Numbered from the stretch's first letter, positions 6,803 to 17,039 are shown. The stretch is DNA of 32,000 nt from Fibrobacter succinogenes subsp. succinogenes S85 (GCF_000146505.1 NC_017448.1:3210001-3242000); one strand, 5' to 3'. Numbers and translations: made by a program. The notes: generated by a model from the sequence alone, not told the origin.

Positions 6803-8947
6803 TTACTTCTTGAATACGCGCTGTGCGTTGTTCTTTGTCTTCAAGATGTAGGCGCCTTGGCGGATGCTCGGCTTGAGGGTACCGTTTTCGTTGAGCGCTT
6901 CGCTCTTGATGCCCTTCCACACGAGGTTTCCGTTCAAGTCGAAAATCATGGCTTGCGTCTTGCTGTCGTTGAAGGCAACTCTGCGGTTCATCTTGATGGA
7001 GCTGGAGCCTGTGCAGCCTGTGGCAACAATCTTTGCAATGTAGATGCCGGCAGATTCGCTGTTGAAGGTGAGTGCGGTAGAACCGTTTTCGCCTTCTTTC
7101 TTGAGAGAAACCTTGGTTTCGCTCCACTTGGAGCCGGCAGCGAGTTTGCCGTATTCGTAATCGACCCAGCTGCCGCCTGCAGCACCGCCCACGTTCACGT
7201 AAGCATCAGAAGTGCCCTGGCTGCGCATGGTGATGACGAGGTTAGAGCAAGAGGCGAGTGCCTTGGCGCCTTCTTCGCTGATGTTCAAGAGCTGGTTCTG
7301 GTAGCCGCAGGTTTCTTCGGACTGGTCGCAGCCGGCGAGCGGAACGCTTGCGTAGCCAGCGATGCCATCGATTGCCGTTGTGCCGTAGGTGACAGCGGAG
7401 AGCTTGTCATCCATGGCCTGCCAGGTCGTAACGTCGGTTGTTGCCGTGTAATCGACAATGACAACATCTGCTGTCGGAACGATAATCGGTTCGACGTAGC
7501 TGGAGTCGCTTGTTTCGTCCTTGCATGTTGCGACTGTGGAAGCGGCTGCGCCCTTCTTGTAAACGAGAGTCGTGATGGAACGTGCCGGGAGAACGGTACA
7601 TGCTGCAACAGAGATGTTCTTGCTCTTGAGGCCGTTTTCCTTGGACTGCACGGCGGTAACGAGGCCGTAGCCCGCGATGGCCGGGTTGTCGAGCTGGATG
7701 GCGGTGCTACCCGTATTGATAAGGATGGTCGAGATGGAATCGCCGTTTGCGCTGAGGAAGGCGACCGTCTTGAGGTTTGCGTCGTCAGTTGCGGTGGCAA
7801 TGACGCTTGCACCCGGATTCACGAACTTGGAATAGTGGCGCATGGCGTGGTATTCCGGGAAAATCTTGAAGCCGGCATCGTCACAGACGTACTTGCCACT
7901 GCCGTCGAGGTCCCAGCCTGCACCTGGGCAAACGCCGATCATCTGGGAGTGGTAACCCCAGAAAAGCTGCCAGGCAATGTAGCCGGAGAGGCGACCATCG
8001 GTAAAGCCGATCTGCATGATCTGGGCAAGGCCGAGCATGTCCTTTTCGCGCGGTTCATCAAGCATCGGGCAGAATTCCGTCATGATGATGGGCTTGTCGC
8101 CCTTGCCGTAAACGTCGGCGATGGCCTTCATCGGCTTGCGGAAGTTTTCCGGATCAAGGTAGTTGTTGCCGGAGTTGTCGTTTCCGTCACCGGCATGGTA
8201 AAGGTGGTAGGAATAGCCATCGAGCTTATTGGCGTCGAGTTCCTTGGCGTACTTTTCAAAGTTGCTGTAGCCAATACCGAGTGGTTCCGGGCCAATCAAC
8301 TTGGTTTGTCCCTTCACGGCGTCATAGACGGCGTTCAAGGCTTCCTTGTAACCGGCGATTTCGTTAGTTTCTGTTGGTTCGAAGAGTGTTTCTTCATAAT
8401 CGGCTTCCATGTCCGGTTCGTTCTGGAGAGAAACGTAGTCCGGAGAGATGCCTGCGGCCTTGTAGGCTTTGAGGCTCTTCTTCCACCAGTTGGCAAAATC
8501 ACTGTAGACGTATTTGCCATACGGGTCGCTGTTCGAGGTCTTGAGCGTGTTCTGGCTCTTGATCTTTTGTCCGTCCACTTTACCGTTCAAGTTGCCGCTC
8601 GGCTTGAGCTTTGCCGGAGCAGACCAGCTGGACATCTGGATTTTCATGTGGTCGCCGAGGCGGGTCTTGGCGGCCTTGACGATGTCAATGTCGTCCTGGA
8701 TTTTTGTGATATCTTCGTCCTGGTACCAGTTTCCCACGCGGAGCAGGGAAATGTTAAGGCCCGTGAATGCGGTATCGAAAAGGGCTTCTTGGTCTGCTGC
8801 GGGGAGGTTCTTGATCCAGCTCTGGTAGTAAACGCTTGCGCCACCGAAACCCGTAACTTTCTGGGCGGTGGAGGCGGGGTTTACCGTTACGCTTGCGGCA
8901 AGTGCGCTAGAGGCGAGCAAAGCCGTTAAAGACAAGTATTTTCTCAT
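6803..8947 (-). CDS. Secreted glycoside hydrolase family 30-like enzyme with extra C-terminal binding-type module and basic sorting-type tail
   Basis: Signal peptide MRKYLSLTALLASSALA. GFGGAS near the N-terminus, YVSLQNEPD (acid/base region) and IIMTEF (nucleophile region), as in GH30. A further ~150-aa module follows. The last ~60 aa (AMIFDLNGNLVWKG...RQGAYILKTKNNAQRVFKK) resemble a T9SS/Por-type C-terminal domain. Confidence 0.8.
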   Translation of the reverse strand: MRKYLSLTALLASSALAASVTVNPASTAQKVTGFGGASVYYQSWIKNLPAADQEALFDTAFTGLNISLLRVGNWYQDEDITKIQDDIDIVKAAKTRLGDHMKIQMSSWSAPAKLKPSGNLNGKVDGQKIKSQNTLKTSNSDPYGKYVYSDFANWWKKSLKAYKAAGISPDYVSLQNEPDMEADYEETLFEPTETNEIAGYKEALNAVYDAVKGQTKLIGPEPLGIGYSNFEKYAKELDANKLDGYSYHLYHAGDGNDNSGNNYLDPENFRKPMKAIADVYGKGDKPIIMTEFCPMLDEPREKDMLGLAQIMQIGFTDGRLSGYIAWQLFWGYHSQMIGVCPGAGWDLDGSGKYVCDDAGFKIFPEYHAMRHYSKFVNPGASVIATATDDANLKTVAFLSANGDSISTILINTGSTAIQLDNPAIAGYGLVTAVQSKENGLKSKNISVAACTVLPARSITTLVYKKGAAASTVATCKDETSDSSYVEPIIVPTADVVIVDYTATTDVTTWQAMDDKLSAVTYGTTAIDGIAGYASVPLAGCDQSEETCGYQNQLLNISEEGAKALASCSNLVITMRSQGTSDAYVNVGGAAGGSWVDYEYGKLAAGSKWSETKVSLKKEGENGSTALTFNSESAGIYIAKIVATGCTGSSSIKMNRRVAFNDSKTQAMIFDLNGNLVWKGIKSEALNENGTLKPSIRQGAYILKTKNNAQRVFKK

Positions 8948-9133: not shown

Positions 9134-9185
9134 CTAAGTTCTAAGAGCGGAGCGGACTAAGCTCTGCTAACTGCGCCACAGGCGC
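9134..9185. repeat. 52-nt family 1 element, copy 1 (abuts the stop codon of the 9185..10357 gene)
   Basis: CTAAGTTCTAAGAGCGGAGCGGACTAAGCTCTGCTAACTGCGCCACAGGCGC. About 85% identical to 22250-22301 and 28446-28497. Confidence 0.95.
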
Positions 9186-10357
9186 TAGTAAGCGCCTTCG
9201 CCCTTGAACACGACCTTGAACGTCTTGAGGATGAGCTTGATGTCTTCGCTGAGCTTTCCATCGCGACGGATGTAGTCGTTGTCCAGGCGCATCTGGCCTT
9301 CAAACGAGATGTTGCTACGGCCACTGACCTGCCAAATGCAGGTGAGGCCCGGAGTCACGGAAAGGCGCATGCGGTGCCAAGGTTCGTATTCTGCCACTTC
9401 GGACGGAATGGGCGGGCGCGGTCCGACAATGGACATTTCGCCCTTGAGAATGTTGATGAGCTGCGGCAGTTCGTCGAGGCTGAATTTGCGGAGGATGTGG
9501 CCGAACGGATAAATACGCGGGTCGTTCTTCATCTTGAACGTCTTTCCGCCCGTTTCGTTCTGGGCCATCAGTTCCTTTTTGCGTTCTTCTGCATCAACGT
9601 ACATACTGCGGAACTTGTACATCGTAAATAATGCGCCGTTCTTGCCGACTCGGGTCTGCTTGAAGATAATCGGTCCCTTCGGGTCGCTAATCTTGACGGC
9701 GAGGGCGCAGAACAAGAGGACAGGCGATAGAGCGATGAGCGCAACGGATGTGCAGGTAATATCAACCATTCTCTTGATGATGTGTCTAAAGCGAATCTTG
9801 TGCGGGTGTACCCAGATGTCTGAAAGGTTCAAACGGTTGAGCGTAAAGAAACTACCGTTTGTGCTGTTGAACTCCTTGAGCTTGTTGTCCATTTCAAGGT
9901 TGTCTTTTTCCTGGTACCCCGTGTAGAGGTAGGCCTGGAAAATAGGAGCTTTCGGCTTGTGGCGGAGTGCCTGGATGAGCCCTGCGTCGTTGAGCTTGTG
10001 GAGGATTTCCTTGCGGATACCTTCAAGCGTGCTCATATCGGAATTCAAAAGGATGATGCCAATACCGCTGTTGTCGGAGAGGTAGCCCAGTACGTCGATA
10101 AAGCGCAGATGTGAAAACATCGTAAGCACGCTAATCTTCCAAGTATTTTCAACAATCTTGGACGGACGGCCCCAGCCGAGCACATCGTACTGGTGCGAAT
10201 AAATCTTGATGAAAAGGAAAGGCTTGCGGGTGCGGTTCGCACGCAAAAACTCCTCGTTCAACCGCGCCTTGAACAGCCTGGCCGGGTAAACGATGTTTTT
10301 CAGTTTTTGTTCGTTAAGGATTGAACCGATAGTCGGATTTACTGCTTCCTGTTCCAT
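9185..10357 (-). CDS. Polyprenyl-phosphate sugar phosphotransferase (small PglC/WbaP-type catalytic domain) with an N-terminal degenerate GGDEF-like domain
   Basis: C-terminal ~200 aa: re-entrant helix, then PIIFKQTRVGKNGALFTMYKFRSM...KNDPRI...LRKFSLDELPQLINILKGEMSIVGPRP...PGLTCIWQV (Bac_transf motifs). N-terminal 190 aa carry the LFKARLNEEFLRANRTRKPF...RFIDVLGYLSDNSGIGIILLNSD pattern. Confidence 0.85.
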   Translation of the reverse strand: MEQEAVNPTIGSILNEQKLKNIVYPARLFKARLNEEFLRANRTRKPFLFIKIYSHQYDVLGWGRPSKIVENTWKISVLTMFSHLRFIDVLGYLSDNSGIGIILLNSDMSTLEGIRKEILHKLNDAGLIQALRHKPKAPIFQAYLYTGYQEKDNLEMDNKLKEFNSTNGSFFTLNRLNLSDIWVHPHKIRFRHIIKRMVDITCTSVALIALSPVLLFCALAVKISDPKGPIIFKQTRVGKNGALFTMYKFRSMYVDAEERKKELMAQNETGGKTFKMKNDPRIYPFGHILRKFSLDELPQLINILKGEMSIVGPRPPIPSEVAEYEPWHRMRLSVTPGLTCIWQVSGRSNISFEGQMRLDNDYIRRDGKLSEDIKLILKTFKVVFKGEGAY

Positions 10358-10474
10358 GCGCCTAAATATATAAAAAAGGGGATTGCTTTCAATTGGGGGT
10401 CTTTTTTTAGGTGTTGTAAATCAATGTTTGCAATACGAACTTTTTTTATTAGATTTTTCAATAGAAGGTAGAAA

Positions 10475-13243
10475 ATGATATTTAAGCTTTTAGGGGCGCT
10501 TTTTTTTGCTGCGTTATTTGCGGGCTGTCATTCGGATGGGGGGAGTTCACCAACCGAAGTTTTGCCATATTCGGGAATGCAAAGGCAAATGTTGCTCATT
10601 GAGGGGTCCAAGGATACCATTGCATTGGGTACAAATAAGAATGGTGCCAAAATAGACGAATCTCCGGAAATGAAGGTCTTGTTGGACTACGATTACTGGG
10701 TGGACCTCTATAAAGTGACTTGTGGTGAATTTAAGTCGGTCATTGATGAAACGATTGTCGAAAATCGCGTAGATTGTGGCCCGGATAGCTTGCCGGTAGT
10801 CAATGTGACTTTTTTTGATGCTGTACTCTTTGCTAATGAAAAAAGTAAAAATGAAGATTTGGATACCATCTATGAATATTCTAGCGCAGAATTTGATAAA
10901 GATGGACATTGCGTGAATCTTGCTGGTTTCTCGTTCCATCTTGATAGGAGCGGTTTTAGGCTTCCGACCGAAGCGGAATGGGTGAAGGTGGCTTCGCAAA
11001 AAGGTAAATGCTTGGATTGCTTTGAAAAAGAGAAGGAGTTTGTCAATGACTACAAAGGTGTTTTCAAAAATGAAGTTGTGACAAATTATGCGGGCGCGTC
11101 CAGTACAAATGATGCCGATGAACGTATTATCAAGGGTGGTAGCTCGTCGAACCTTTATTCAAGAGGGGGGACATATCCTGTAAGTCCATCGACTTATGAA
11201 GGCAATATTGGTTTTCGTCTAGCGATTGGCAGAGTTCCTGATGCTGTTTTTTTTGATCAGGGCGGAAAGAAGGTAAATTCCCCTGTCAGGGTGGTTTCTT
11301 CAGTGCTGAAACTGTGGGATTACACAAAAACTTCTAAAGTAAAGCTTGTCTTTAAAAACGAGGTTACAGGAAATCTCAATTACATTGATTATTACAATAA
11401 CAGTGAAATTGTTGAAATTAAAAAAACAGAGTCGGCTTATCATCCAGATATCTCACCGGATGGAAGCATGGTTGCTTATTGTACGGGGATCGAGGGGATT
11501 GATCGGAAGTCCCAGGTTTATGTCCGTAGTCTAGATAATAATGATTCCAAACCTGTAAAATTGGATGTGGAGAGCGCTGCAATTCCTCGCTGGAATGTTT
11601 TAGAAAGTGGCGATACCGTTATTACTTATGTGACGGGAACCGGCAACAATTCTAGCGAAAAGTCTTTCAAGAGCATGAGCACGTGGCAAGTCCCTTTTGC
11701 AAATGGAAAGTTCGGGAAGCCTACTAAGTTGTTTGATGGGGCGTACCATGGTGGAGTGAGTGTTGACAGTAAGCTTGCTGTTACGGGGTCAAAAATTCTC
11801 CGGGCTAGGGTCAACGGAAAAGAAACGGTCTGGTATAATGGGGAACAGGCTTGCAATGTGTCGCTTTCGAGAGATTTTAGCAAGCGTACGTCGTTTCTCG
11901 ATTTCCATAGTACAACGGGTGAAAAATTTGTTGGCAACAAGTACCGGGTACATGAAATCCTTTTTGTGGCGGACAGTGCCGGAAATCTTATTCAACATGT
12001 GAAAGCGCCTGACGGCTATACATTTGATCATCCTGAATGGGTGACCGGGCGAGTGAACGAGAATATTGTGGCGACTCTTGCAAATGCGGACGGGGCGCAT
12101 TCTAAAATTGTCCTAGTCCATTTGGCTGATAGCTCTATTACATATCTTGTCGAAGGCGATGAACTGTGGCATCCGAGTCTTTGGATTCGCGAAAGGATCG
12201 TGATTCCTTCTAGCTCTAGTGTTGCAAGCAGCTCAAGCAAGCCTGTCAGCAGTTCTTCTGTTTCGAGTTCCAGTTCTGAATCTAGCAGTTCTATGGGCTC
12301 GAGTTCCGACGGAAAATCTTCAAGTTCTAATGATAAACCGGTACAGTATTTTGAACTTGATGAAGATAGCGCAGGCTTTTACGTGAAAAACAATGAATTC
12401 CAGGAAGCGCACTGGAGTTATAAGATGGAACTTGTCTGGACCTATTGGGATTCGGCGGATGTTGTTATTTTGGGTTCGTCAAGGCCGCAACATGGTGTTA
12501 TTCCAGCCTTGTTTAGCGATCAGTTTTATGTTGTCAATCTTGCGAGTGCGCACGGGAGTATGCATTCTTCTTATTATATGGCAATGAATTACGTCTTGCC
12601 CCATTATAAAAAGCTGAAGTACATTATCATTGAAATCGCGCTTGATAGGCTATGGCTGACAAAACAGAATAGTTTCTTTTTTCTGAGAAGTCCTGATATC
12701 AAGGGGTATGTTTACGATGCCAATCACGATTTCTGGAAGTCGGGCATTCCCGAAGGTCTTAAGGAAATGACGCATGAAGTGCCGAAGGTCTCCTCGTATG
12801 CAGGCAACCTGACTGAACGGGGGGCGATGCCTTTGAATAGTTGTGGCAACTGGAGGTCGTCGGTTTATGCAGAACAGGATGTCGCGTGGCTTGATACGGG
12901 GCTTGTCCGACTTGAAGAAACTTTGGGTTACTTGACTGAAATTATAGAGCAGGCCAAAGAAAAGAATATTAAGGTGATTGGTTTAGAAATGCCGCTAAAT
13001 CCGAATTACAAGAACGTGAATGCTTACGGAAAGTATGGGCTACGCAATAGCGATGCTCCTAAAATACTTGAACGAATTGAGAATATGGTTGAAAAGTACA
13101 GCAATTTTATGTTCTTTGACCAGCACAAGATGGGTGAACACGATTATCTTAATGGTATGAATTACGATGATGACCACCTTTGCCGAGCAGGTGCCGAGAA
13201 AATAACCCACCGTCTGGATTCCCTGTTGAAAACATTAGACTGA
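10475..13243 (+). CDS. Large lipoprotein: FGE-sulfatase-like domain + PD40/TolB-like beta-propeller + Ser-rich linker + SGNH/DltD-like C-terminal domain
   Basis: Lipobox FAGC|HS. FGE-like: YWVDLYKVTCGEF...PVVNVTFFDAVLFANEKS...GFRLPTEAEWVKVAS...IKGGSS...GNIGFRLAIG. PD40-like: YHPDISPDGSMVAYCTG. Ser-rich linker at nt 12206-12334. C-terminus has VVILGSSRPQHG and YDDDHLCRAGAEKI (Ser and Asp-x-x-His blocks of SGNH/DltD-type enzymes). May belong to the Fibrobacter-specific ~900-aa paralogous family I recall from TIGRFAMs; unverified. Confidence 0.8.
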   Translation: MIFKLLGALFFAALFAGCHSDGGSSPTEVLPYSGMQRQMLLIEGSKDTIALGTNKNGAKIDESPEMKVLLDYDYWVDLYKVTCGEFKSVIDETIVENRVDCGPDSLPVVNVTFFDAVLFANEKSKNEDLDTIYEYSSAEFDKDGHCVNLAGFSFHLDRSGFRLPTEAEWVKVASQKGKCLDCFEKEKEFVNDYKGVFKNEVVTNYAGASSTNDADERIIKGGSSSNLYSRGGTYPVSPSTYEGNIGFRLAIGRVPDAVFFDQGGKKVNSPVRVVSSVLKLWDYTKTSKVKLVFKNEVTGNLNYIDYYNNSEIVEIKKTESAYHPDISPDGSMVAYCTGIEGIDRKSQVYVRSLDNNDSKPVKLDVESAAIPRWNVLESGDTVITYVTGTGNNSSEKSFKSMSTWQVPFANGKFGKPTKLFDGAYHGGVSVDSKLAVTGSKILRARVNGKETVWYNGEQACNVSLSRDFSKRTSFLDFHSTTGEKFVGNKYRVHEILFVADSAGNLIQHVKAPDGYTFDHPEWVTGRVNENIVATLANADGAHSKIVLVHLADSSITYLVEGDELWHPSLWIRERIVIPSSSSVASSSSKPVSSSSVSSSSSESSSSMGSSSDGKSSSSNDKPVQYFELDEDSAGFYVKNNEFQEAHWSYKMELVWTYWDSADVVILGSSRPQHGVIPALFSDQFYVVNLASAHGSMHSSYYMAMNYVLPHYKKLKYIIIEIALDRLWLTKQNSFFFLRSPDIKGYVYDANHDFWKSGIPEGLKEMTHEVPKVSSYAGNLTERGAMPLNSCGNWRSSVYAEQDVAWLDTGLVRLEETLGYLTEIIEQAKEKNIKVIGLEMPLNPNYKNVNAYGKYGLRNSDAPKILERIENMVEKYSNFMFFDQHKMGEHDYLNGMNYDDDHLCRAGAEKITHRLDSLLKTLD

Positions 13244-14578: not shown

Positions 14579-14591
14579 TTAAAGGTTGTAT

Positions 14592-16043
14592 ATGATTCGC
14601 GCAACTACTATGGAACGAATTCTCTTAATCCTCTCGGATTTTGCCGCTTTGTCGATTTGTTTCGCCTTGGCGTTTTGGGTTCAGTTCCATAGTGGCCTTA
14701 TCGTAGACAAGTTCGACCCGACCAAGACGTTTGATAGCTATTGGCAGTACGGCCTTGTCTTGAATATCGGGTGGCTAACCTTGTTTGCCTTTGCCGGATT
14801 GTATCGTTCCTGGCTTTTGTTATCAAGAACACACCAGGTCTTGCGCGTTCTCCGTGCGGTTGTCATTGGTGTGGTCTTGGTGATTGTCTGTCTGTTCGGT
14901 GCCGAGTTCATGGGGAAGGTCTTTACGAACCAACCGCTCAATGAAGGCTATCTCTATGGTTCCCGGTTCCCGTGGATATTTATATATGGCGGACTTGCCA
15001 TTTTGCTTGTCGGCTTGTTCCGCATGTTTATCTATATCTTCTTGCGTGCTCTGCTCCGTAAGGGCTATGGAGCGAACAATATCCTTGTGCTTGGCGCTAC
15101 CGAAGCGGGTAAAAAGATTGCTCGTGATCTGGCGAAGACTCCGGCTCGTGGTCAGCGCGTTGTGGGCTTTGTCGATGAACGCTACCAGGTCTTGCCGAAA
15201 AAGTTTGCGAAGGTTCCGGTTCTCGGCAAGTATTCCGATTTGCCTGCTCTTGTCAAGAAGTACAAGGTTAGTGGCATTATCATCGCGCACGAAAGTACGT
15301 CTCCGCAAGAGATTATGCGCGTGCTCGTCTGGATTTGCGAACTCCCGCTCCATATTTACATTGTTCCTGAACTTTATAGCGTCGTGAATGGCCGCTTCAA
15401 GGCAAACCTTGTTTACGGTTTTGAATTGCAGGAACTTTTTGCGTTTACGATGCCGCCTTGGCAGGTTCGCGTCAAGCGCATTATCGATATTGCTTTTGGC
15501 TTGTTCCTCGGGCTTTTGTCGCTCCCGGTATGTTTGTTTGCCGCTATTGCGATTAAGCTCGATGACCATGGCCCCATTTTCTATTCGCAGGAACGCATTG
15601 GCCTTTATGGCAAGCCGTTTACAGTTTACAAGTTCCGCACGATGCGTACCGATGCCGAAAAGTTTGGAGCTCAGTGGGCGACCAAGAAGGACCCGCGCAT
15701 CACGCGAATAGGCCGTTTTTTGCGCAAGACCCGTATTGATGAACTTCCGCAGATTCTTTGTGTTTTGAAAGGCGATATGAGCATGGTGGGGCCGCGTCCG
15801 GAACGCGCCGTGTTTATTGGCAAACTCCGTGAACAGATCCCGTTCTACATCAGCCGCCTCAAGATGAAACCGGGCCTCACTGGCTGGGCTCAGGTTTGCC
15901 ACCACTACGATACGAGCATTGAAGATGTGCAGATCAAGCTCCAGTACGACATGTACTATTACGAGAATATGAGCTTGCTTTTGGATTTCCAGATTCTCGT
16001 ACGAACCGTTTATGTTGTGCTGACAGGCAAGGGTGCTCAATAG
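14592..16043 (+). CDS. Large (WbaP/CpsE-type) polyprenyl glycosylphosphotransferase
   Basis: Four to five N-terminal TM helices. Rossmann-like [14 protein letters not shown] segment. C-terminal Bac_transf domain ([24 protein letters not shown]...[23 protein letters not shown]...[10 protein letters not shown]...PGLTGWAQV). ATG 14592 is preceded by AAAGG; the ORF track's TTG 14586 is less likely. The start lies 13 nt after the hom stop. Confidence 0.9.
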
Positions 16044-16045
16044 CA

Positions 16046-16087
16046 ACTGCCTACTAATCACCAACCACTAACCACTAATTACTAATC
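16046..16087 (+). repeat. Tandem heptamer array filling the whole PGT-nadC spacer
   Basis: ACTGCCT ACTAATC ACCAACC ACTAACC ACTAATT ACTAATC, immediately followed by the nadC ATG. Confidence 0.9.
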
Positions 16088-16951
16088 ATGTACGGCGATA
16101 ATTCTACTCCAGTATTCCCAACCGAAGATGCTTTGACCATGATCCGCCTCGCATTGGCGGAAGACGTTCGCACGGGCGACGTGACCAGTGAATGGACCAT
16201 CCCCGCGGACCAGAAACAGCATGCCCGCCTCATCGCCAAAGAAGATGGCGTGCTCGCCGGCCTCCCGATTATTGAACTCGTGTTCCAGGAACTCAAGGCA
16301 AACGCCAAGGTGACGCTCCACAAGAATGATGGTGACGTCGTGAAGAAAGGCGACCTGATTGCCGAACTTGATGGCACGACTCATGAACTTTTGACGGGCG
16401 AACGTACGCTCTTGAACTTCATCCAGCAGCTCTCTGGTGTGGCAACGGTTGCTCACACGTTCCAGGAAGCCTTGAAGGGCGGTAAGACCAAGGTTCTCGA
16501 CACCCGCAAGACGATTCCGGGTTTCCGCACTTTGCAGAAGTACGCCGTTCGCGTCGGTGGTGGTTCCAATCACCGCATGGGCCTCTTTGATATGGTGCTC
16601 GTGAAGGACAATCACATTGCAGCTGCTGGTGGCGTGCTCGAAGCTCTCGAAGTCGTCAAGAAGAACAACAAGCAGGGCTTGATGGTTGAAATGGAAGTTG
16701 AAAATTTTGACCAGCTCCGCGCTCTCCTCAATAAGGGCGTTGACGTCATTATGCTCGACAACATGAGCAACGAAATGATGGCCGAAGCTTTGAAGATTAT
16801 CAAGGAAAGCGGCGACAAGTGCCTCGTGGAAGGTTCTGGCAACATGACGCTCGAACGTGCGAAGCAGATTGCAACGCTCGGTCTTGACTTCATCTCTGTC
16901 GGTGCTCTCACGCACAGCGTCAAAGCCCTTGACATCTCGATGAGAATTTAA
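16088..16951 (+). CDS. nadC: Nicotinate-nucleotide pyrophosphorylase (quinolinate phosphoribosyltransferase)
   Basis: LAEDVRTGDVTS, GERTLLNFIQQLSGVAT, DTRKTIPGFRTLQKYAVRVGGGSNHRMGLFDMVLVKDNH. A possible alternative start is Met18. Confidence 0.93.
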   Translation: MYGDNSTPVFPTEDALTMIRLALAEDVRTGDVTSEWTIPADQKQHARLIAKEDGVLAGLPIIELVFQELKANAKVTLHKNDGDVVKKGDLIAELDGTTHELLTGERTLLNFIQQLSGVATVAHTFQEALKGGKTKVLDTRKTIPGFRTLQKYAVRVGGGSNHRMGLFDMVLVKDNHIAAAGGVLEALEVVKKNNKQGLMVEMEVENFDQLRALLNKGVDVIMLDNMSNEMMAEALKIIKESGDKCLVEGSGNMTLERAKQIATLGLDFISVGALTHSVKALDISMRI

Positions 16952-16960
16952 TTTGAATTT

Positions 16961-17039
16961 GTCATGGCGGGATTGCCCCGCCATCTAGCTGTCATGCTTA
17001 CAGCAGAATTGTCATGCCCGCCACCGAGCGGGCATCTCC
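16961..17039. repeat. Cluster of three family 3 GTCAT units (two with strong hairpins)
   Basis: GTCATGGCGGG-ATTGC-CCCGCCATC (16961-16985), GTCATGCTTACAGCAG (16991-), GTCATGCCCGC-CACCGA-GCGGGCATCTCC (17011-17039). Confidence 0.9.

Follow-up and report, generated by a model that had tools for sequence, protein, structure and literature searches.

Undecaprenyl phosphate is scarce, and phosphoglycosyl transferases (PGTs) commit it to a glycan pathway; degenerate GGDEF receptors such as PelD and BcsE control polysaccharide synthases. The regulation of PGTs is an acknowledged gap (PMC10942596, PMC12802240). The accessory DUF domain of WbaP is regulatory, senses UMP and mediates dimerisation (PMC10942596). 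In Myxococcus xanthus, EpsW~P activates EpsZ, which represents post-translational control of an initiating PGT (PMC12802240). Concerning PelD, R402 is 'absolutely required' for the binding of c-di-GMP, beside R367 and D370 (PMC8461298). Fibrobacter succinogenes has GGDEF proteins and makes c-di-GMP, 2.5-fold more on cellulose; a c-di-GMP effector was not identified in that study (PMC6851124).

We analysed a window of 32,000 nucleotides from F. succinogenes subsp. succinogenes S85 (NC_017448.1:3210001-3242000), in which positions are counted from the first letter. The gene under study encodes a PGT preceded by an additional domain, and its main parts are the following:

9185..10357, minus strand: whole gene, a fusion of a GGDEF-like domain and a monotopic PGT, 390 aa (ORF list; stop codon included).
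9788..10357, minus strand: N-terminal soluble domain, aa 1-190, very probably a catalytically dead, diverged GGDEF fold (AF2, Foldseek, profile against PDB, hhalign).
9203..9775, minus strand: monotopic PGT catalytic core, Bac_transf, aa 195-385 (Pfam E 8.2e-64; NCBIfam EPS_sugtrans and EpsZ, E ~1e-82).
9680..9769, minus strand: re-entrant membrane helix, aa 197-226, with a Ser211-Pro212 kink and a basic stretch before it (hydropathy scan and conservation).
9470-9475, minus strand: Asp295-Glu296 dyad within the PGT core (read in the sequence).

The original prediction placed the first ~190 aa before a complete catalytic domain of the PglC/WbaP type, and this holds: the Pfam family PF02397 (Bac_transf) matches with 214.9 bits against a cutoff of 27, and aa 195-385 cover the full profile (positions 1-179 of 179). 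The monotopic PGT motifs S211-P212, D295-E296 and G312-P-R-P-P316 (the GPRPP motif) are invariant in 53 sequences. NCBIfam groups the C-terminal half with the polyprenyl glycosylphosphotransferases of the EPS/WbaP/WcaJ type, with scores under every equivalog cutoff. The protein is not a large monotopic PGT of the WbaP/WcaJ type, as it has no PF13727 match and one hydrophobic segment, not a bundle of four transmembrane helices. That segment, aa 197-226, is the sole one found in the hydropathy scan of the 390-aa protein, so aa 1-190 should be soluble. In the established topology of the monotopic PGT superfamily both flanks of the re-entrant helix are cytoplasmic, which places aa 1-190 in the cytoplasm together with the catalytic domain. 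A genuine large PGT lies in the window, 4 kb from the fused gene. The reading of aa 1-190 as the accessory domain of a large PGT without its transmembrane helices was ruled out by BLASTP against the N-region (CoA_binding_3) of that protein (E 0.86).

The fused ortholog is carried by 52 Fibrobacter or Fibrobacteraceae species, and its length is constant at 390 aa. The N-domain is 96-98% identical to that of F. succinogenes MAGs. The dN/dS is ~0.08 for the N-domain and ~0.06 for the PGT core, values which are approximate as dS is saturated, and the fused N-domain is under strong purifying constraint. On the minus strand nt 10064-10105 translate to RFIDVLGYLSDNSG, and aa 28-52 read LFKARLNEEFLRANRTRKPFLFIKI, with KIYSHQY at aa 51-57; all strings quoted in the original prediction, including RFID, SDNSG and KIYSHQY, agree with the translation.

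Pfam and NCBIfam gave no match to aa 1-190, nor a relevant match for 19 members of its family, and phmmer of the same residues against the PDB sequences gave no match. An HMM search of aa 1-190 against PF00990 (GGDEF) had been suggested together with the original prediction, and it too returned no match. The family consensus reaches 12.8-13.1 bits, under the gathering score of 23.8, and its Pfam match to GGDEF (E 0.1) stands beside equally weak unrelated families and is no evidence by itself. The domain family is thus one that current Pfam and NCBIfam models miss.

A HMMER search, which covered 1.84 billion representative sequences, found close full-length orthologs and ~20 very distant proteins (21-38% identity), mostly of ~150 aa. 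Alignment A2 comprises 19 diverse sequences of the family, in which Y24, R32, E36, R39, F47, W73, D88, G91 and G98 are invariant or near-invariant; alignment A3 is deeper but narrower (127 sequences). When the A2 profile was compared with all PDB sequences, the best matches were GGDEF proteins, headed by DgcR (6zxm, E 7e-4) and followed in order by 6zxb, 7e6g (SiaD), 6zxc, a weak TIR-domain match and 5euh (GcbC). The entries 6zxb and 6zxc are I-site mutants and score ~8 bits below the wild-type 6zxm. The A3 profile found no match in the PDB; only the diverse A2 profile succeeded. Alignment A6 consists of four genuine GGDEF domains from Fibrobacter loci, two of which contain RKYDVFARYGGEEF, and a DgcR fragment. 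Compared with A6 by hhalign, A2 gave an E of 2.8e-5, with a probability of only 74%, over 100 columns and in the same register as the DgcR alignment.

The AF2 model of aa 1-190, based on the 127-sequence alignment, has a pLDDT of 81.9 and a pTM of 0.81. Its elements follow the order H26-43, E47-53, H67-81, E89-92, E98-104, H108-124, E140-145, H150-165 and E171-175; this alpha-beta-alpha-beta-beta-alpha-beta-alpha-beta order matches GGDEF domains. With this model, the top 50 Foldseek matches in the PDB are exclusively GGDEF domains (E down to 3.6e-5, probability ~1), with modest TM-scores of 0.36-0.55, an rmsd of 6.5-9 A and 9-18% identity. PleD structures with (p)ppGpp (9g85 and 9g86) are among them. 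The comparison of a predicted structure with GGDEF domains, also suggested originally, thus agrees with the profile and hhalign results, and the prediction of a degenerate GGDEF-like domain fused to a complete PGT is upheld. We regard it as very probable that aa 1-190 form a real but extremely diverged GGDEF-fold domain. The AF2 model of the full-length protein is weaker (pLDDT 61.7, pTM 0.46), below what domain-domain contacts need, because the PGT half of its alignment held close orthologs only.

The residues of the N-domain which correspond to functional sites of GGDEF domains are:

10241..10264, minus strand: ridge R32...E36...R39 on helix alpha1, invariant in the family alignments A2, A3 and A5 and in the 53 fused sequences.
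10094..10105, minus strand: RFID, aa 85-88, counterpart of the I-site RxxD (aligned to DgcR, PleD and Fibrobacter diguanylate cyclases).
10064..10078, minus strand: SDNSG, aa 94-98, beta2-beta3 hairpin in the place of GG(D/E)EF, variable except for D95 and G98.
10007..10015, minus strand: R115-K116-E117 on helix alpha3, E117 being at the position of the third I-site arginine (three alignments).

Concerning the active site, GG(D/E)EF is replaced by the hairpin SDNSG, which varies among orthologs, and the metal-binding aspartates of beta1 (DxDxFK) by KIYSHQY, as had been read originally; the LxNRR segment of GGDEF domains is replaced as well. With all three elements replaced, the GGDEF active site is lost and no cyclase activity is expected. 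The original prediction also held that the five-residue spacing after RxxD is kept. This is right give or take one residue, as both HMMER and hhalign open a single-residue insertion in the hairpin, by which GGEEF comes to align with DNSGI and not with SDNSG.

A bare RxxD proves nothing, because the 390-aa protein has a second one, RMVD, at aa 196. RFID aligns with RKSD of DgcR and with the RKYD of RKYD...GGEEF in the Fibrobacter cyclases, and also with RAID in what we take to be the PleD sequence. Its register, which agrees in three independent alignments, exceeds chance. Position 85 is arginine in 47 of 53 sequences (52 orthologs and the window) and lysine in the other six, and D88 is invariant in all 53. 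The arginine which completes the I-site on helix alpha3, found in TRILDRVR of DgcR and AERFR of the Fibrobacter cyclases, aligns with Glu117; that of PleD, if LRIAERIR is the sequence as we assume, does the same. We take PleD R390 to be the equivalent of PelD R402 and the third primary I-site residue. Every fused ortholog has Glu or Asp at this position, and R115, K116 and E117 are invariant across the 53 sequences (52 species and the window). On helix alpha1, R39 presumably corresponds to R313 of the PleD secondary I-site, by a hand count on the PleD sequence as we assume it and not from any alignment.

The fused domains were also compared with stand-alone members of the same family, using redundancy-reduced sets of 19 fused and 18 stand-alone sequences:

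Position 85: fused, R in 15 and K in 4; stand-alone, R in 16.
Position 88: fused, D in 19; stand-alone, D in 17.
Position 113, equivalent to PleD R386: fused, S, N, A, T or G; stand-alone, R in 9.
Position 117: fused, E in 18 and D in 1; stand-alone, R in 13.

More distant homologs of the fused type show SIID or SEID or lack the motif altogether, with Ser or Pro at position 85; a Fibrobacterales bacterium of the termite gut is the source of one of them. Of the original reading, the placement of RFID on the I-site RxxD stood; the I-site as a whole is not preserved, the alpha3 arginine having become Glu117 and position 85 not being arginine throughout. Judged by these residues, the primary c-di-GMP I-site of the fused domain would be only half intact, and canonical c-di-GMP binding by it is doubtful.

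This bears on the model put forward originally, in which RxxD of the fused N-domain would be the binding site of c-di-GMP, or of another cyclic dinucleotide, and the domain would switch the PGT directly. The position and conservation of R85 and D88 are in its favour, as are the invariant R39 at the presumed counterpart of PleD R313, the presence of c-di-GMP in Fibrobacter and the invariant R115 and K116, which lie beside position 117 and might substitute for the missing arginine. Against it count the acidic residue in all fused orthologs where PelD R402, and presumably PleD R390, is essential, the absence of the R386-equivalent arginine at position 113, and the changes at position 85 to Lys in six species and to Ser or Pro in the distant homologs. 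Direct gating of the fused PGT by a cyclic dinucleotide is possible, and it is not the most likely reading; as an account of this protein we hold it to be rather unlikely.

A family profile search returned 562 homologs, nearly all of them annotated as a 'hypothetical protein' of ~150 aa or a 'sugar transferase' of 390 aa from Fibrobacter, and the domain family appears to be restricted to Fibrobacterota. The stand-alone members (~150 aa) keep RGSD and Arg117, and with the A2 profile the family RGSD aligns on the I-site RKSD of DgcR. By its residues, the complete canonical I-site belongs to the stand-alone clade and not to the fusion. We give even chances to the stand-alone paralog being an I-site c-di-GMP receptor, for which it is a credible candidate, and c-di-GMP sensing seems likelier in it than in the PGT fusion.

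Based on the look-ups of stand-alone genes, seven of eight overlap a GT4 glycosyltransferase gene or precede it by 2-8 nt. In the seven contigs long enough for an upstream view, the stand-alone gene is divergent from a DUF4954 hexapeptide-repeat gene. The pairing with GT4 is also found in flagellated relatives outside the genus Fibrobacter (~25% identity), and one lineage has the stand-alone gene without the GT4 gene. Among the loci retrieved, none contains fused and stand-alone genes together. The fusion to a PGT in one branch and the translational coupling to GT4 in the other argue that the job of the family is tied to glycosyltransferases.

The conserved neighbours of the fused gene are housekeeping in nature: homoserine dehydrogenase, a canonical large PGT, nadC and a GH30-like protein. 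No polysaccharide cluster surrounds the fused gene in the window or in the related loci, and no c-di-GMP riboswitch or other Rfam element was found in the window. A gene of 922 aa with an FGE-sulfatase domain lies between the fused gene and hom and is present in only two other genomes. A neighbouring ORF has a Fib_succ_major domain. Canonical RxxD-GGEEF cyclases are encoded in Fibrobacter loci.

Taken together, aa 1-190 are a cytoplasmic, catalytically dead domain, very probably derived from GGDEF, which is fused to a small monotopic PGT. In this Fibrobacterota family, which pairs with glycan-building enzymes, one branch is fused to the PGT and the other stands alone, translationally coupled to GT4. 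We propose that the domain may serve as a regulatory or assembly module; it would most likely pair with another copy of itself or with a different GGDEF-like domain, and control over the first membrane-committed step would be exerted in this way. Canonical I-site sensing of c-di-GMP would fall mainly to the stand-alone paralog, in which RxxD is kept along with both arginines, that of alpha3 and that of alpha1. The site of the fused copy is remodelled, with R/K85, D88 and R39 kept and Glu117 in the place of the essential arginine; because of this replacement the fused copy would either lack canonical c-di-GMP binding or give a secondary site only. For the fused domain we favour a role in dimerisation or in the binding of a partner; R85, D88, R115, K116 and E117 may form a remodelled pocket in it. 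As a whole, a regulatory or partner module of glycan enzymes, derived from GGDEF and with sensing mainly in the stand-alone paralog, is the best explanation, and we lean towards it with some reserve. Against it count the scores below the Pfam threshold, the A3 profile without a PDB match, the modest TM-scores and hhalign probability, and the housekeeping surroundings of the fused gene.

An alternative would be a ligand-independent, fossil GGDEF fold kept only to dimerise or scaffold the small PGT, a role that the DUF beta-hairpin has in WbaP, and free of signalling input. The eroded I-site and the lost A-site fit this reading, WbaP and EpsZ need dimerisation for activity, and GGDEF domains are natural dimerisers. 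It leaves unexplained, however, why the charged, surface-type residues R32, E36, R39, D88, R115, K116 and E117 are so strictly conserved and why the sister clade has a complete I-site, and we consider it unlikely. A further reading joins the two paralogs in one c-di-GMP switch: an intercalated c-di-GMP dimer, bound on RGSD and Arg117 of the stand-alone protein, would cross-link to R39 of the fused domain and so recruit GT4 to the PGT. We put this forward as an improbable scheme. If it were true, assembly of a surface glycan would pass through its first two steps only at high c-di-GMP, for example on cellulose. The switch would then also give Fibrobacterota their first identified c-di-GMP effector and, within the literature searched, be the first case of a second messenger controlling a phosphoglycosyl transferase directly.

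It has also to be considered that the remodelled pocket senses another nucleotide or metabolite, such as UMP or a UDP-sugar in a feedback, or (p)ppGpp. The UMP-sensing accessory domain of WbaP, the (p)ppGpp-bound PleD structures 9g85 and 9g86 among the Foldseek matches and the R115-K116-E117 triad, whose invariance is specific to the fused clade and suggests a new site, point in that direction; but positive evidence is absent and the GTP-binding residues of the A-site are all lost, which makes such a ligand very unlikely. Finally, that aa 1-190 are an unrelated alpha/beta domain with coincidental GGDEF-like motifs might be argued from the missing Pfam and NCBIfam matches, the modest TM-scores and the failure of the A3 profile in the PDB, but it is hardly credible given that three independent methods converge on GGDEF alone with one register, that the order of secondary structure fits and that the neighbouring large PGT has a CoA_binding_3 domain to which aa 1-190 show no similarity.

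The regulatory or partner module, with sensing mainly in the stand-alone paralog, is the reading we retain. In the searchable literature no paper was found that connects a phosphoglycosyl or priming transferase with GGDEF, the I-site or c-di-GMP, in line with the original remark that no characterised PGT is known to be regulated in this way; the architecture is also unannotated, and the PGT-fusion lists of O'Toole et al. 2021 may hold it. The analysis defines a new PGT architecture along with the domain family that Pfam and NCBIfam models miss. It also supplies two candidate c-di-GMP effectors, namely the PGT fusion and the GT4-coupled stand-alone protein with a full I-site. The presence of Arg or Glu at position 117 is a natural experiment which makes the question directly testable.

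Among the known systems, PelD of Pseudomonas aeruginosa is similar in that its GGDEF fold is catalytically dead, bears RxxD and serves a glycan-synthesis enzyme, and its pairing with PelF (GT4) is mirrored by the operon of the stand-alone Fibrobacter paralog and GT4. Unlike the fused Fibrobacter domain, PelD contains a GAF domain besides four transmembrane helices and has retained R402, where the fused domain has Glu; it also acts in a pathway of the synthase-dependent type and has no PGT attached, and its likeness to the Fibrobacter domain rests on fold, residues and context, not on direct sequence comparison. PleD, WspR, DgcR (6zxm) and GcbC (5euh) form the group of the best profile and structural matches, with the same order of elements and the same position of RxxD. 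In contrast to these active cyclases, GG(D/E)EF, the metal-binding acidic residues of beta1 and LxNRR are all replaced in the Fibrobacter domain.

On the side of the transferases, PglC, a small PGT, has the same core, with the Ser-Pro re-entrant helix and the Asp-Glu dyad. In the large PGTs (WbaP, CpsE and EpsZ; PF13727) the same catalytic core is likewise preceded by a non-catalytic domain in the cytoplasm, but their accessory domain is of a different fold, and the Fibrobacter fusion is without the four-helix transmembrane bundle. Bi-PGT fusions combine the core with one fused soluble domain as well; their partners are enzymatic, whereas here the fold is non-catalytic and of a signalling type. 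The EpsW~P-EpsZ pair resembles what is proposed for Fibrobacter, in that a small signalling domain controls the initiating PGT. EpsW is, however, a separate receiver-domain protein activated by phosphorylation and not a fused GGDEF-like domain. By analogy with these systems, and without one defining I-site residue, the fused domain would resemble both the degenerate-GGDEF receptors (PelD and BcsE) and the accessory regulatory domains of PGTs.

Besides the fused PGT (the 390-aa protein in which the degenerate GGDEF-like domain precedes the PGT core), the window encodes a second initiating transferase 4 kb away, a canonical large PGT with CoA_binding_3 and Bac_transf domains (TIGR03025, 473 bits). 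The fused PGT is divergently adjacent to the pair formed by the homoserine dehydrogenase gene (hom) and the large PGT in 43-45 of the 52 Fibrobacter genomes containing its ortholog. The two initiating transferases are retained together beside homoserine dehydrogenase. In the window, the gene of a 922-aa predicted lipoprotein is an insertion separating the fused PGT from hom; its product carries an FGE-sulfatase-like domain at the N-terminus, together with a long linker rich in Ser (including SSSSVASSSSKPVSSSSVSSSSSESSSS...), and a homolog is found at the same position in only 2/52 other genomes. The features of the window are:

10365-10392, -, sigma-70-like promoter match (TTGAAA, 16 nt spacer, TATATT)
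14586-16043, +, canonical large PGT
10475-13243, +, 922-aa predicted lipoprotein
6803-8947, -, 714-aa secreted GH30-like protein
6857-8929, +, 690-aa ORF antisense to the GH30-like gene

The promoter match of the fused PGT scored 10/12 against a consensus that may not hold for Fibrobacter, and ends just 8 nt upstream of the ATG, so that a near-leaderless mRNA would follow. No Rfam elements were found across the whole window. The 690-aa ORF spans nearly the full GH30-like gene, and other genes are likewise shadowed by long antisense ORFs (e.g. 14823-16064 and 16082-16984); these ORFs have no Pfam match and look like compositional artefacts.

Concerning the relatives, the following loci are given in their own coordinates:

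L046 11755-13554, L051 11951-13726, L045 2119-3231, L050 2139-3266: canonical GGEEF diguanylate cyclases
L001 8001-9747 and L056-L065 (e.g. L065 6001-7675): stand-alone paralog of the N-domain with GT4
L066 214-1668 and 6001-6438: locus with the stand-alone paralog near a hom/large-PGT pair, one flagellated relative

In 4/52 Fibrobacter genomes, the fused PGT has such a cyclase gene within 3-6 kb, showing that these genomes encode canonical cyclases, and two of the four cyclases contain an RKYD+5+GGEEF I-site; their closeness is probably coincidental.

The stand-alone paralog (~150 aa) contains the full I-site signature RGSD...R. Its gene either overlaps that of a GT4 glycosyltransferase or sits 2-8 nt upstream of it, and its divergent neighbour encodes a 620-aa DUF4954 hexapeptide-repeat protein. 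This order is kept from the Fibrobacter genus out to flagellated relatives; the window contains none of its three genes. In the flagellated relative represented by L066, the GT4 partner is absent beside the paralog, and 4.3 kb separates the paralog from a hom and large-PGT pair like the one next to the fused PGT in the genus Fibrobacter. This placement may hint at the site where the fusion arose.
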